DNA of 64,000 nt from Escherichia phage vB_EcoM_ESCO47. The stretch lies in the sequence record OM386662.1. One strand, written 5' to 3'. This document shows, piece after piece, positions 2 through 44,470 of this stretch. Positions within the stretch are counted from its first letter, which is position 1, and every line of letters starts with the position of its first letter. The notes beneath the pieces are model-generated. The model saw only the letters and a list, made by a program, of their open reading frames with translations, had not been told where the DNA came from and did no database searches. A program made the translations under genes and the position numbers.

Positions 2-334
2 TCAGCAGGTATAAATGTCAAAGACAAAAAGGGACACCATTCTTATGGTATGTTTCAAAATTATTTACCGACAATGAAATCAAGAACAAAGGAACTCGGA
101 TATAATATGTCCGATTCTCAAATTAAGAAAATGCTATCTAAGCGGTCTAATTCAGCAAGATGGGCTTATATCGAATTTTCTTATTGGTTAAATATACATA
201 ATGGGGATATAAGAAAAGCTATATCTTCGTATAATGCGGGATGGAACCAAAAAGCAGGCCAGAAATATGCTAGTGAAGTCCTGGAAAAGGCTAATTACCT
301 TAAATCGCATAAACTACTGGAAACACACGAATGA
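2..334 (+). CDS. 5'-truncated CDS, open to window start; possible lytic-transglycosylase-like protein (vs.1 position)
   Basis: Reading frame has no stop back to base 2; YNAGW motif resembles SLT-domain signature; lies upstream of vs/tk as in T4. Confidence 0.4.
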   Translation, partial: SAGINVKDKKGHHSYGMFQNYLPTMKSRTKELGYNMSDSQIKKMLSKRSNSARWAYIEFSYWLNIHNGDIRKAISSYNAGWNQKAGQKYASEVLEKANYLKSHKLLETHE

Positions 335-2338: not shown

Positions 2339-2557
2339 GTGTATATGCAGCATTTAAACGAAAGACAACTTCGTAATCTTACTGTTAGCCAATTAGATGA
2401 AATTCGAAGAGAGATTGGACATTCAATTTCTCATTTAAAAGAAGATATCCGTCAAACTGGTTCTAAAGCAGATTATACCCGTATGCGTAAGCTGGAAAAA
2501 TACCTCACAGATGTTAAGGCCGTCCAAAGGCGTAAAATTAATACAGGTCAAAAATAA
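2339..2557 (+). CDS. Hypothetical protein (rI.-1 position)
   Basis: 72-aa ORF with RBS AGGAGG upstream. Confidence 0.45.
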
Positions 2558-5332: not shown

Positions 5333-5614
5333 ATGAAAAAATTAGTAATTGGTTTATTTGCAGTAATGATGGCGTTCTCTGTTGGTGCTACCACGGGTGC
5401 TACCAGCGGTAGTGCAGGCGCTGGTGGTAACCAGTCTTCTGGGCCTTCCAATGGTTCGGTAAATGCGTCACATTCTCAGGGTATTGAGAACATTAAATCA
5501 AGCTATATTAATAGCACGGCCGGACAAGCAACTGAAGCATGGTCAAAGGGTCGAGTAGTTACTCGCTCCGTATTCTGTGATATGCCTAATTATGTTGCTA
5601 AGTGCGATAAGTAA
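5333..5614 (+). CDS. Secreted Gly/Ser/Asn-rich small protein
   Basis: Signal peptide MKKLVIGLFAVMMAFSVGA then low-complexity G/S/N stretch; two C-terminal Cys. Confidence 0.5.
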   Translation: MKKLVIGLFAVMMAFSVGATTGATSGSAGAGGNQSSGPSNGSVNASHSQGIENIKSSYINSTAGQATEAWSKGRVVTRSVFCDMPNYVAKCDK

Positions 5615-23239: not shown

Positions 23240-23293
23240 TTACTAAATCCTTATTTGATACAGCAACAGATAAATTGATAAACCTATTTATAT

Positions 23294-40174: not shown

Positions 40175-40423
40175 ATGGAATTATTCGTAGCTAGTTCAGT
40201 AGCAGTTTTAATCGCAGGTATTGGTTCAATCATCATTTACATGTTGCCTTGGGTAATCGCACTTATTCGTGGCACAAAAAGCACAACAGCAATCTTCTTT
40301 GTATCTTTACTCTTTAACTGGACGATGGTTGGTTGGATTGGAACTTTAATTTGGTCTATCGTTGCCAAAAAGAAATCGGCTCAGCAGCCTCAACAAGTAA
40401 TTATTATTCGAGAAAAAGAATAA
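40175..40423 (+). CDS. Small membrane protein
   Basis: Two hydrophobic helices. Confidence 0.45.
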   Translation: MELFVASSVAVLIAGIGSIIIYMLPWVIALIRGTKSTTAIFFVSLLFNWTMVGWIGTLIWSIVAKKKSAQQPQQVIIIREKE

Positions 40424-40427
40424 ACTT

Positions 40428-40458
40428 GTTTACATTATAGATGGACTATAGTATAGTA
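40428..40458 (+). promoter_or_regulatory. T4-type early promoter
   Basis: GTTTAC ... TATAGTAGTCCTATCAA box. Confidence 0.5.
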
Positions 40459-40486
40459 GTCCTATCAAATCAACTAAGGAGATAAA

Positions 40487-40780
40487 ATGAAAAAGTTATC
40501 ATTGGCAGCAATCTTACTTGCAGTATCATGCGCACCGGCTCCAGTTACGGCAGGTTATGATAAAGACCTCTGTGAGTGGTCAATGACTGCAAATCAAGAA
40601 GATGTTGAACAACAAATCTTCTCTGATATCATGAACATCACTAAACGAGACCGTCCTAATATGGTTAATAAAGTTGTTGAACAACTTAAGTCTGGCGGTA
40701 TCATGCAGTACAATTATGTTTTGTATTGTGACCCTAATTTTGATAACAAAGATATCGTAACCGAAATCACAGGTGAATAA
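40487..40780 (+). CDS. sp: Spackle-like periplasmic protein
   Basis: 97 aa with signal peptide; GYDKDLCEWSM segment matches my recollection of T4 Sp; 61.x position. Confidence 0.55.
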   Translation: MKKLSLAAILLAVSCAPAPVTAGYDKDLCEWSMTANQEDVEQQIFSDIMNITKRDRPNMVNKVVEQLKSGGIMQYNYVLYCDPNFDNKDIVTEITGE

Positions 40781-42157: not shown

Positions 42158-43180
42158 ATGGCTGAATGGATAGATAATGAATTTGCTTATCGTGCGTTTT
42201 CTCACCTACCTCGTTTTAGACAAATCAATAATTCAAGCACATTTAAATTAACATTTCGTTGTCCAGTTTGTGGCGACTCCCAGACAGATGCAATGAAAGC
42301 CCGCGGTTGGTATTATGGCGGTACTCCTGGCAATGTACATTGTTATAACTGTCAATATCATAATACAATTTCTGGATACTTAAAAGAGTATGATGAAGAG
42401 CTTTATCGCGAATATCTAATGGAAGTTCGTAAAGAAAAAGCTAGAATGGAACCAAAGATTGAAAAGTTTCCTGAAGCTAAGCCGGAACCAGAGAAAAAGA
42501 CTATAAATTCTTTGCCGTCTTGTTCTCGTCTGGACAAGTTGCCTGAAGAGCATCCTATTGTGAAATATGTTAAGTCTCGATGCATTCCTAAAGAATCATG
42601 GAATAGACTATGGTTCACATTAGAATGGCCTAAATTGGTCAACAAGATTCAACCAGGGACATACAAGAAAGAGATTCCTGAACCACGTTTAGTGATTCCT
42701 ATTTTTAATAAAGATGGGAAGGCCGAGTCATTCCAAGGACGTGCACTTCGTAAAGATGCTCCTCAGAAATATATCACTATTAAAGCGTTTGAGACGGCAA
42801 CGAAAATATACGGTGTTGAACGTGTTAAGGAAGGAGATGTCTGGGTAATGGAAGGTCCTATTGATAGTTTATTCATACCCAATTCAATAGCTATTACAGG
42901 CGGCTCGATAGATTTAGATATGGTACCATTTAAAGAACGTCGGGTATGGGTAATGGATAATGAACCTAGGCATCCGGATACTATAGCTCGTATGAAACGT
43001 TTGGTAGATGCAGGCGAACGTGTCATGTTCTGGGATAAAGCTCCATGGAGATCAAAGGATGTGAATGATATGGTAATGAAAGAAAATGCAACACCAAATG
43101 AAATCCTTGAATATATGAAACAGAATATTTCAAGTGGGTTGCATGCTAAAATGAGATTATCTAAATATTCTAAAATTTAG
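42158..43180 (+). CDS. 61: DNA primase gp61
   Basis: 340 aa; N-terminal zinc ribbon CPVCGDS...CYNC; TOPRIM-like core. Confidence 0.85.
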   Translation: MAEWIDNEFAYRAFSHLPRFRQINNSSTFKLTFRCPVCGDSQTDAMKARGWYYGGTPGNVHCYNCQYHNTISGYLKEYDEELYREYLMEVRKEKARMEPKIEKFPEAKPEPEKKTINSLPSCSRLDKLPEEHPIVKYVKSRCIPKESWNRLWFTLEWPKLVNKIQPGTYKKEIPEPRLVIPIFNKDGKAESFQGRALRKDAPQKYITIKAFETATKIYGVERVKEGDVWVMEGPIDSLFIPNSIAITGGSIDLDMVPFKERRVWVMDNEPRHPDTIARMKRLVDAGERVMFWDKAPWRSKDVNDMVMKENATPNEILEYMKQNISSGLHAKMRLSKYSKI

Positions 43181-43374
43181 ACCAATCCTACTAGTGCAAA
43201 AGCAATATCAACTACTGTGTCAAGAGGCACAGAAGGAACGATAATACCGTTAGCAACTAGCAATGGAGCAATACCGAAATTCCAAGAAATGATTCCACCA
43301 ATAACAACAGCGGCTAAAATCGTTTTCTTTTTATGTCCTTTGATAGCGGCGATTAACAACGGTAACTTAAGCAT
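43177..43374 (-). CDS. Small hydrophobic membrane protein (paralog of 43367..43570)
   Basis: Minus-strand ORF with GGAG upstream; sits between 61 and 56 where T4 has dam. Confidence 0.4.
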   Translation of the reverse strand: MLKLPLLIAAIKGHKKKTILAAVVIGGIISWNFGIAPLLVANGIIVPSVPLDTVVDIAFALVGLV

Positions 43375-43570
43375 GCAAATTAACTCCGATTGCTTTGATT
43401 ATTGAAAGTATATGCTGTAACTCCACTTGTGGTAATATAATAGCTTGAGTTGCGGCCAATGGAACTATTACTAGATTCCATACTAAAACGTCCACAGCAA
43501 GAAAAAAGAATATCAACTTACGTGATTCTTTATTTGTTAACTTCCAGATTTGATAGAACACAGTTCCCAT
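43367..43570 (-). CDS. Small hydrophobic membrane protein (paralog of 43177..43374)
   Basis: Strong AGGAGG 5 nt upstream of ATG on minus strand; shares W-N-x-x-I-x-P-L...I-I-x-P-x-V pattern with its neighbour. Confidence 0.45.
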   Translation of the reverse strand: MGTVFYQIWKLTNKESRKLIFFFLAVDVLVWNLVIVPLAATQAIILPQVELQHILSIIKAIGVNLHA

Positions 43571-43658
43571 AAATCCTCCTACGTTATAGGTTTATTTATG
43601 CTTTTTATCAGGTTTGGTATAATTAACATCTCTTAAACATGAATTGAAAGGAAATAAA

Positions 43659-44180
43659 ATGGCGCACTTTAACGAATGTTCACAACTGATTGCTGGTGTT
43701 GATAAAGCTGAAGAAGCTTATTTTAATGCTCTTATTCACGAAGATAAAGACCCGTTGCAGGTAATGCTTGATATGCAGAAATCTTTACAGGTTCGTCTGG
43801 CAAATGACAAGCCTGAACATAACAAACATCCTGATGAATTGGCCACTGCTGGTGAAGTCGTTGATTGGCTACGCAATCAGAAAGATTATATTGACGATGA
43901 ATTCCGTGAACTTCTGACTTCTCTTGGTGGTATGAGCAATGGTGAAAAAGCCGCCAGCAGTGTATGGAAGCCGTGGAAGGCGCAACATGCTGAATATCGA
44001 AATCGTCGTATCGATGAACTGTCTCCTGAAGACCAGCTTGAAATCAAATTTGAAATGATTGATATTCTCCATTTCGTTCTGAATATGTTCCAAGGTCTTG
44101 GTCTTACTGCTGAAGAAATCTTTAAATTGTACTACCTGAAGAACAAACATAATTTTGAACGCCAGGATAATGGATATTAA
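43659..44180 (+). CDS. 56: dCTPase/dUTPase gp56 (MazG-like)
   Basis: 173 aa from MAHFNEC; position between 61 and soc as in T4. Confidence 0.75.
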   Translation: MAHFNECSQLIAGVDKAEEAYFNALIHEDKDPLQVMLDMQKSLQVRLANDKPEHNKHPDELATAGEVVDWLRNQKDYIDDEFRELLTSLGGMSNGEKAASSVWKPWKAQHAEYRNRRIDELSPEDQLEIKFEMIDILHFVLNMFQGLGLTAEEIFKLYYLKNKHNFERQDNGY

Positions 44181-44218: not shown

Positions 44219-44470
44219 ATGGGTGGATATGTAAATATCAAAACGTTCGACCATGAAGTAGCAGGTGGTACAGTAGAAGGTACCGAGGTTTCTGTTGCAT
44301 TTGAAGTTTATTCTAATGCTCATCGAATCTCAGGTGCGCACTATCAGACTTTCCCGTCTGAAGAACCAGCCTATGATACTGTGGTTGACACCGCAGATGA
44401 TTGGGCAACAGCAAATGAAGCTATGTTTACCCCAGAACCTGCACCGGTTCCTCCAGGACCCGGTGCATAA
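44219..44470 (+). CDS. soc: Small outer capsid protein Soc
   Basis: 83 aa; GYVNIKTF...ISGAHYQTFPSE matches my recollection of T4 Soc. Confidence 0.8.
   Translation: MGGYVNIKTFDHEVAGGTVEGTEVSVAFEVYSNAHRISGAHYQTFPSEEPAYDTVVDTADDWATANEAMFTPEPAPVPPGPGA

Follow-up and report, generated by a model that had tools for sequence, protein, structure and literature searches.

A putative late operon joining two subtypes of the phrog_2024 membrane-protein family between genes 61 and 56 of Escherichia phage vB_EcoM_ESCO47

RI, RIII and T are accessory, fast-evolving envelope/lysis-timing proteins peculiar to T-even phages, with the inner membrane and periplasm as their site of action; RI combines a SAR domain with a globular periplasmic domain, RIII is cytoplasmic and T has 218 amino acids (aa). 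Another small membrane protein, ORF52 of the Chi-like Salmonella phage BSPM4, has 64 aa and one transmembrane (TM) segment, is located in the membrane, binds the holin and delays lysis (PMC11657625). The RB69ORF029w family, phrog_2024 in the PHROG collection, is placed there in the category of unknown function; its members have 57-74 aa, one TM helix and a W-N..P..G..LP.V core. Their genes occupy the 56-61 slot on the opposite strand, with the 3' end abutting the gene 61 stop and with a NATAAATA late-type motif and a strong Shine-Dalgarno (SD) sequence ahead of it. Most phages have one copy, whereas Escherichia phage vB_EcoM_ESCO47 (ESCO47; sequence record OM386662.1) has two diverged subtypes, A then B, apparently in one operon. 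Here we describe these two genes, orfA (ESCO47_00131) and orfB (ESCO47_00130), within a window of 64 kb, which is the whole stretch of DNA that was analysed. The phrog_2024 family is already known from T-even phages; orfA and orfB are new members of it, in a probable two-subtype operon of an uncommon kind.

Both genes lie on the minus strand, opposite to the surrounding early genes 61 and 56, in the neighbourhood 61.1, 61, 56 and soc. A first-pass annotation, made from the sequence alone, had proposed two minus-strand open reading frames (ORFs) of 67 and 65 aa between genes 61 and 56, each with its own ribosome-binding site and both running against the operon around them. Their coordinates and lengths are correct, the flanking genes are on the plus strand, and AGGAGG ahead of orfA and GGAG ahead of orfB are read directly in the sequence. 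The start codon of orfB and the stop of orfA overlap by 8 nt. At the other end, orfB and gene 61 are convergent and their coding ends overlap by 4 nt at the stop codons, an end-to-end overlap with gene 61 that recurs in T4, PhAPEC2, VR26, F48 and VR5. With moderate confidence, we read the pair as a two-gene late operon of single-pass inner-membrane phrog_2024 proteins, and with low confidence as accessory modulators of the envelope or of lysis.

Membership of both proteins in phrog_2024 was observed directly. The family profile matched orfA at E 8e-20 (residues 1-61 of 67) and orfB at E 2e-24 (residues 1-65 of 65), and our own hidden Markov model (HMM) of the family scored them at 7e-29 and 8e-27, respectively. 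It was the sole significant PHROG match, followed by one marginal match to phrog_27313 (E 0.026), likewise of unknown function. Sequence searches with orfA and orfB of Pfam and NCBIfam (at E <= 0.1-1), PADLOC and PDB gave no match, and Foldseek against BFVD returned nothing beyond phrog_2024 members and noise. The two proteins thus differ from RI, RIII and T, to which they have no detectable similarity by the Pfam and PHROG searches.

The distribution of the family was obtained by tblastn of a phage collection and by an exhaustive HMM search. In the collection, 692 records matched the type-B query and 268 the type-A query, the latter at a looser threshold, and both searches cross-match. Single-copy orthologs of orfB occupy the same position in ~690 phage records; orfB is 81% identical to RB69ORF029w and 49-51% identical to the T2, T4 and T6 copies (49% for T4). 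By the family HMM, the 56-61 slot is occupied on the opposite strand in eight genera, namely Tequatro-, Mosig-, Gapriver-, Dhaka-, Jiaoda-, Gelderland-, Kanagawa- and Marfavirus, and the same model found no member within ~1.5 kb on each side of gene 61 in Tegunavirus, Slopekvirus, Krischvirus, Bragavirus, Tulanevirus and Lazarusvirus. The exhaustive search of 1.8 billion representative proteins yielded 11 clusters only, of 57-70 aa except for one weak, repetitive match of 585 aa, a scan of IMG/VR with the family alignment yielded 2 loci, and a word-indexed protein search gave few matches. Judged by sequence, the family comprises at least three subtypes. Type B, with the N-terminus M[LF]KL..LI.AIKG.KK[KR], is that of Tequatrovirus and Mosigvirus; type A, with MG[TS][VIL]FYQIWKL, is that of Dhakavirus, Gaprivervirus, Marfavirus, Kanagawavirus and Gelderlandvirus; and type C, with MSEVK..., is found in Jiaodavirus and relatives. 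A single copy of each type is the usual state in most phages.

In databases, members are called 'hypothetical protein' or carry sporadic mislabels. The product names seen were 'dCTP pyrophosphatase', 'DNA packaging ATPase', 'Holin' and 'putative head morphogenesis protein', in records of CGG4-1 (YP_009286392.1), the Klebsiella phages VAC36, EI and MY02, OE5505 (A0A482MZV5) and T6 (AP018814). These unrelated names are most likely errors of annotation transfer from neighbouring genes, or automatic guesses.

Both ORFs are real genes under purifying selection. The ratio of nonsynonymous to synonymous substitution rates (dN/dS) was 0.09-0.13 in those comparisons of family members in which synonymous sites were unsaturated, and 0.09-0.10 for orfB against its Mosigvirus orthologs. 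Between orfA and its 94%-identical copy in the metagenomic phage contig L026, the proportions of synonymous (pS) and nonsynonymous (pN) differences were 0.26 and 0.035, giving a pN/pS of 0.14. Between genera the synonymous sites are saturated and the proteins can still be aligned, and the reading frame, the length, the SD sequence and a specific protein motif are all kept across the eight genera and in a prophage. Spurious ORFs are ruled out by the dN/dS of ~0.1. The same evidence bears on a non-coding account in which the frames would be chance products and the real feature a late antisense RNA against the early transcripts of genes 61 and 56. Since the coding regions share their stop-codon ends, a late transcript would indeed continue into gene 61 in antisense; a search of the minus strand inside gene 61 found no terminator-like site, and an antisense effect could coexist with coding. 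Equally, any early or middle read-through from gene 61 into the interval would be antisense to orfA and orfB. A search at orfA and orfB for a dedicated small-RNA promoter or terminator, as for the cis-antisense regulator of a type I toxin-antitoxin system, found neither. As the sole explanation, antisense RNA is effectively refuted by a dN/dS of ~0.1 with saturated synonymous sites and is further opposed by the retention of frame, length, SD and protein motif, so we find it scarcely credible.

Several signals point to late transcription from a single promoter. The T4 late-promoter consensus was taken as TATAAATA, and the motif CATAAATA upstream of orfA differs from it at the first base, which is C. 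The first T of the consensus, at -13, is poorly conserved in the late promoters of T4-like phages (PMC1524935). For T4 itself, a dRNA-seq preprint gives 150 phage start sites. Counted on both strands of the window, ATAAATA occurs 7 times against an expectation of 27.9 +/- 5.0, a depletion of about 4-fold (100 of 100 shuffles had at least 7 copies), and every one of the seven lies 20-45 nt upstream of an ORF with SD and ATG. Depletion together with this placement suggests that ATAAATA has been purged except at promoter positions, among them that of orfA. The known late genes soc and 49 are among the ORFs behind such sites; soc served as an internal control and has TATAAATA 28 nt ahead of its ATG. 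The sites, listed in Table 1, also form a map of late transcription units in a mostly early region.

The signal is shared across the family. A late-type motif stands on the correct strand within 45 nt upstream of the first family gene at 13 of the 14 sampled loci, with a chance of 0.013 per locus, and the sequence flanking the motif differs between lineages; in Marfavirus and Kanagawavirus the motif is a perfect TATAAATA. ESCO47 has the same combination of a NATAAATA late-type motif and a strong SD ahead of the first gene. No NATAAATA was found in the region upstream of orfB, and the second gene of the pairs likewise has no late motif of its own, which suggests that orfA and orfB are read as one operon. 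An early sigma-70 promoter was considered and rejected, as no promoter of that type was found upstream of either gene. From these signals we strongly infer that orfA and orfB form one late operon, in which one promoter of the type used by gp55, the phage late sigma factor, and a strong ribosome-binding site would drive orfA, and orfB would be translationally coupled to it through the 8-nt overlap.

The divergent gene 56 may have a middle promoter in the same interval. Middle promoters of T4 combine a -10 box with a MotA box at -30, (a/t)(a/t)(a/t)TGCTT(t/c)A, and the upstream (MotA) box of the candidate ahead of gene 56 overlaps the reverse complement of CATAAATA. This overlap may be the reason that the late motif begins with C in ESCO47, NC-G and VR26 (on the opposite strand in VR26, TATGCTTCA). 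The likeliest start of gene 56 is the ATG at 43659, with an open frame that reaches back to a TTG at 43644.

Table 1. Positions of the genes, signals and related features discussed in the text. Positions are those of the 64-kb ESCO47 window unless another record is named.
Feature	Position	Strand	Description
orfA (ESCO47_00131)	43367..43570	-	67 aa, type-A phrog_2024 member, N-terminus MGTVFYQIWKL...; ORF list, 100% protein match; behind an ATAAATA site
orfB (ESCO47_00130)	43177..43374	-	65 aa, type-B phrog_2024 member; ORF list, 100% protein match
Gene 61	42158..43180	+	DNA primase; phrog_47, E 3e-101
Gene 56	43659..44180	+	dCTPase/dUTPase; divergent from orfA
soc	44219-44470	+	3' of gene 56; behind an ATAAATA site
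SD of orfA, AGGAGG	43575..43580	-	Read in sequence; 4 nt ahead of orfA ATG
Ribosome-binding site of orfB, GGAG	43384..43387	-	Within orfA 3' end; 9 nt ahead of orfB ATG
Late-promoter-like motif CATAAATA	43593..43600	-	22 nt upstream of orfA ATG
Predicted TM segment of orfA, ~residues 19-41	43448..43516	-	Hydropathy, AlphaFold2 model and alignments; Asp27 membrane-embedded; core W31-N32...P37
Predicted TM helix of orfB, residues 17-41	43252..43326	-	KGHKKK basic cluster before; NG-IIVPSVPLD-TVVD turn and acidic tail after
orfA AlphaFold2 model	Residues 3-11, 14-41, 42-50, 51-60		N-terminal helix, long (TM) helix, loop, C-terminal helix; predicted local distance difference test (pLDDT) 71
orfB AlphaFold2 model	Residues 4-12, 17-41, 42-50, 51-62		N-terminal helix, long (TM) helix, loop, C-terminal helix; pLDDT 78
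Candidate MotA-type middle promoter of gene 56	43599..43623	+	TGCTT 43599-43603, TATAAT 43618-43623; from sequence, one mismatch
ATAAATA sites	2314, 5298, 5306, 11807, 44184	+
ATAAATA sites	23285-23291, 43593-43599	-
70-aa ORF	2345-2557		phrog_1826; behind an ATAAATA site
93-aa signal-peptide protein	5333-5614		phrog_2243; behind two tandem ATAAATA motifs
Gene 49			Endonuclease VII-like; behind an ATAAATA site
238-aa ORF (MNYNSIYEKL...)		-	Behind an ATAAATA site
Imm-like 'immunity to superinfection' gene	40175-40423	+	phrog_1039, E 2e-30
Spackle gene	40487-40780	+	phrog_1586, E 3e-42; side by side with the Imm-like gene
T4 orfB ortholog, MVQKLMALVNAIKGNKKR...	NC_000866.4 17739-17939 (L004 4739-4939)	+ (L004)	AGGAGG ribosome-binding site; GATAAATA 23 nt upstream
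NC-G type-A copy (MK310184)	L002 2816-2950	-	1-nt deletion in T-run
WP_047667744.1 gene	L022 5001-5213; L025 4402-4614	+ (L022)	Extreme end of an E. coli prophage interrupting yegD

Comparison with T4 changes how the slot itself is viewed. In T4 dam is located between genes 56 and 61, as the first-pass annotation had stated, and the annotation was also right that no Dam-like ORF is present: in the whole 64-kb window, tblastn with T4 Dam reached a best E of 2.9, and no (D/N/S)PP(Y/F/W) motif occurs in any ORF of more than 150 codons. The Mosigvirus relatives likewise have no dam at 56-61. Its further suggestion, that the two ORFs stand where T4 has dam, does not hold. The 310-bp gap between dam and gene 61 of T4, featureless in the RefSeq record, holds a 66-aa ortholog of orfB on the opposite strand, so T4 carries this gene in addition to dam, which is inserted between the family gene and gene 56. 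The ortholog is annotated as a hypothetical protein in newer T4 and T-even records. Replacement of dam is ruled out by the presence of both genes in T4, which makes the small gene a constant feature of the slot and dam an extra insertion in some lineages.

The first-pass annotation had also called orfA and orfB a paralogous pair of membrane proteins with a shared motif. They are related, well beyond chance: identity over the W-N..P..P.V core is 35% (BLASTP E 6e-06) and both fall in phrog_2024. A simple local paralog pair they are not. Identity over the full-length alignment is 23%, each type is single-copy in most phages, and their sequences mark them as old, deeply diverged subtypes and not the outcome of a recent duplication. 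The full-length identity, the single-copy types elsewhere and breakpoints at both ends of the pair and at the A/B junction together rule out a recent tandem duplication.

The mosaic origin of the locus is visible when its boundaries are mapped over 43150-43660 against Mosigvirus PhAPEC2 and Dhakavirus Phage NC-G. Relative to PhAPEC2, identity is 92-98% across gene 61 and ~78% from the gene 61 stop through orfB. orfA is absent from Mosigvirus and ~90% identical to NC-G, and at least the first 150 nt of gene 56 are 100% identical to NC-G. The order A-B with a junction identical to that of ESCO47 occurs in NC-G and in the metagenomic contigs L026 and L027, and the pair is intact in both contigs. 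The type-A copy of NC-G, which is unannotated, has lost one nucleotide in a run of T (TTCTTTTTC versus TTCTTTTTTC) and is cut to 44 aa, whereas the near-identical metagenomic phages L026 and L027 keep it whole; the loss could reflect a young pseudogene or an error in sequencing the homopolymer. Compared with L026, orfA of ESCO47 is close, at the pS given above, and orfB is distant (pS 0.75), which indicates that alleles were exchanged after the pair had formed. In Gaprivervirus VR26 (gp031/gp032) the order is the opposite, B then A, with an 8-nt spacer and a different junction; VR26 was the genome inspected, and VR7 and VR25 match at the same coordinates. NC-G, L026/L027 and VR26 all resemble ESCO47 in having type A and type B in tandem in the same slot with one late-type motif. 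The A-B and B-A arrangements are independent, so phages came to possess both types at least twice, and selection maintains this state.

Homing-endonuclease genes occupy the slot in relatives, segF in T4 and VR26 and mobE in VR5. SegF drives localised marker exclusion around gene 56, which would explain a recombination hot spot at 56-61. In our reading, orfB is the resident allele of Mosigvirus/T4 type and orfA the type of Dhaka-, Gapriver-, Marfa-, Kanagawa- and Gelderlandvirus; recombination in a slot prone to homing endonucleases joined both types, apparently in one operon, and purifying selection keeps both.

One distant member, from among the 11 clusters of the exhaustive search, lies outside the T-even genomes. 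The prophage protein WP_047667744.1 matches phrog_2024 at E 6e-11 (hhalign probability 96%), and its gene is placed after the tail-fibre genes of a temperate, lambda-type-tailed prophage, in the same orientation as the late tail genes. About 1.5 kb from it are genes for a 135-aa lysozyme resembling T4 gp5/E and for a SegE-like GIY-YIG nuclease. The 3.2-kb segment of prophage end that carries it is present in 25 complete E. coli genomes.

This distribution invites an alternative in which orfA and orfB would be late superinfection-exclusion, immunity or conflict proteins that block the entry of, or damage by, a secondary phage or counter a membrane-associated host defence. The evolution of the family is accessory-like, with its three or more subtypes, a recombination hot spot, variable copy number and absence from the six genera named above, and the prophage member is a true one, sited in yegD after tail-fibre genes. 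Exclusion morons such as cor are often located at prophage ends after tail-fibre genes. The late-type motif argues against exclusion of the early T4 style, and the prophage copy, co-oriented with late tail genes, may also be late-transcribed. Spackle, an exclusion protein of T4, is presented as early (PMC7677548). An Imm-like gene and a Spackle gene are already present in ESCO47, on the early strand 3 kb upstream (40175-40780); these resemble orfA and orfB as genes for small T-even envelope proteins in the same 61.x region, but they belong to other families (Table 1) and neither is matched by orfA or orfB. The two proteins also lack similarity to any PADLOC or Pfam family. Taken together, we regard a role in exclusion or conflict as unlikely.

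The protein architecture was predicted from hydropathy, AlphaFold2 models and alignments. The first-pass annotation had described both proteins as mostly hydrophobic, in agreement with grand averages of hydropathy of 0.95 and 1.44 and with Kyte-Doolittle peaks over 19 residues of 1.9 to 2.4 that span the long helix; hydropathy and AlphaFold2 together give one TM helix each. Independently, residues 21-41 of RB69ORF029w were predicted to span the membrane and the protein to lack a signal peptide (Nolan et al. 2006, PMC1524935 Additional file 2). In orfB the N-terminal 17 residues carry +5 from Lys/Arg, and the C-terminal 24 residues contain two Asp (Asp52 and Asp56) and no Lys or Arg; the C-terminus is hydrophobic or acidic in both proteins. 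By the positive-inside rule, a basic cluster before the helix and an acidic tail after it predict that orfA and orfB are single-pass inner-membrane proteins with the N-terminus in and the C-terminus out. On the cytoplasmic side each would thus have a basic cluster and a short N-terminal helix of amphipathic character; the single TM helix, with a conserved W-N and Pro, would lead through an [A/S/T]-x-[G/A] turn to a periplasmic tail of ~24 residues, which contains the motif L/V-P-x-V/I-x-L/M-D/E and another short amphipathic helix.

Across all subtypes the consensus is W-N-[FYL]-x-[IV]-x-P-[LIV]-A-x-[AST]-x-[GA]-x-x-[LV]-P-x-[VI]-x-[LM]-[DE], and both ESCO47 proteins show the family pattern of 57-74 aa, a basic N-region, one predicted TM helix and W-N-x4-P...[AST]-x-[GA]-x2-[LV]-P-x-[VI]. 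The best-conserved part of the family is the predicted periplasmic (outer) end of the TM helix with the juxtamembrane loop, which suggests a specific partner and not bulk membrane damage. Within a subtype the cytoplasmic N-helix is conserved, but each subtype has its own version. Midway along the predicted TM helix, type-A proteins share a conserved Asp (A[LIV]D[VI][FIL][LV]WN; residue 27 of orfA, 43490-43492 on the minus strand), at a position where types B and C have Gly, Ala or Val.

Two alternatives turn on these features. The proteins might form holes in the manner of holins or pinholins, or be toxic membrane peptides, and in either case depolarise the inner membrane late in infection. 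In size and in having one predicted TM helix they would suit small holins and type I toxins, the apparent timing is late, type A has an Asp inside the TM helix, and A0A482MZV5 of phage OE5505, the top BFVD match at 54% identity, was deposited as 'Holin', a label only. Set against this, no holin Pfam family or PHROG lysis family was matched, no endolysin or spanin gene lies within several kb, and the basic cluster is N-terminal and the C-terminus hydrophobic or acidic, without a basic tail, which is the reverse of the usual holin layout. The conserved part is a specific juxtamembrane motif and not a generic hydrophobic helix. T-even phages, moreover, lyse through holin T, and t mutants neither lyse nor lose membrane potential on schedule. 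We therefore give hole formation or toxicity a rather small chance, slightly below that of exclusion.

The second alternative takes the TM helix for a long signal sequence, cut after [A/S/T]-x-[G/A], which would send a hydrophobic peptide of 22-26 residues to the periplasm. Every aligned member has small residues at -3/-1 of the turn, a bulky polar residue at -2 and Pro 7 upstream, and the best-conserved motif, LP.V.L[DE], follows directly. The hydrophobic stretch is 22-24 residues long, whereas the h-region of cleaved signal peptides is shorter; AlphaFold2 gives one continuous 25-residue helix for orfB, and SignalP was negative for RB69ORF029w (PMC1524935 Additional file 2). A secreted peptide is accordingly very improbable.

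A late-type promoter and a predicted inner-membrane location would also suit a membrane factor for virion morphogenesis, for example one acting in portal/prohead initiation with gp20 and gp40. T4 prohead assembly starts on the membrane, and a T6 record names its copy 'putative head morphogenesis protein', again a label only. The gene, however, is not present in sister genera with the same head pathway as T4, the NC-G copy is frameshifted, the family diverges much faster than structural genes, and a homolog resides in an unrelated temperate prophage with a lambda-type tail. These points leave a morphogenetic role quite improbable.

The reading that we favour is a late operon of accessory envelope or lysis modulators. 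A late-type promoter, a strong ribosome-binding site, a predicted single pass with the N-terminus in and the C-terminus out, and a conserved periplasmic motif together suggest that a partner is engaged at the inner membrane or periplasm late in infection. Most of the late small inner-membrane phage proteins that have been characterised are lysis components, and with ORF52 of BSPM4 as a precedent this leads us to rank a modulator of lysis or envelope timing first. We propose, tentatively and with low confidence, that both products work late in infection on the periplasmic side of the inner membrane, where they would be accessory modulators of the envelope/lysis programme. Modulation could mean tuning the timing of holin, antiholin or spanin, possibly as homo- or hetero-oligomers, and the subtype-specific cytoplasmic N-helices may confer different partner specificity. 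By analogy, a holin-restraining mechanism of the ORF52 type would be the most likely kind for phrog_2024. ORF52 is likewise a small single-TM protein encoded away from the lysis cassette; the likeness is one of description, its TM segment is at the extreme N-terminus, and its toxicity and holin binding have been measured whereas phrog_2024 is known from sequence.

Several points weigh against this reading. The literature searched yielded no transcript, protein or phenotype data for any phrog_2024 member, and the topology and oligomerisation are predictions. The HMM of Nolan et al. (2006) called no late promoter upstream of RB69ORF029w (PMC1524935). In T-even genomes the family shows no link to lysis genes, and its neighbours are replication genes. 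Classical T4 r-mutant genetics is not known to have placed any locus for lysis timing at this site, and no genetic link between the 56-61 locus and r phenotypes is known. In T4, t mutants fail to lyse; with no r locus at this position, any role in lysis must be accessory. Finally, a pattern of conflict or host interaction fits equally well, as seen in the subtypes, the change of copy number, the frameshifted NC-G copy, the absence from sister genera and the homolog at a prophage end.

A more ambitious form of the favoured reading, which we consider doubtful, holds that the family is an unrecognised T-even component of lysis timing or lysis inhibition beside T, RI and RIII, present in T4 itself, and that the two subtypes of ESCO47-like phages act together late in infection as one hetero-oligomeric device in the inner membrane. 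Through the periplasmic motif that they share, both would then bind one common partner, and the cytoplasmic helices, which differ by subtype, would widen or adjust the control. In a bolder variant, the conserved [AST]-x-[GA] site would be cleaved to free the ~24-residue peptide as a periplasmic signal.

In practical terms, the analysis yields a clean annotation for ESCO47_00130 and ESCO47_00131, corrects the scattered mislabels in databases and provides a testable target in T4. That phage is among the best-studied viruses, and a conserved, apparently late membrane-protein gene in its dam-61 gap is missing from the reference annotation. If it is true that the family tunes lysis, lysis inhibition or late exclusion, it would be a new component of a classic system, and a role in lysis or late exclusion would also explain the recombination hot spot in the slot.

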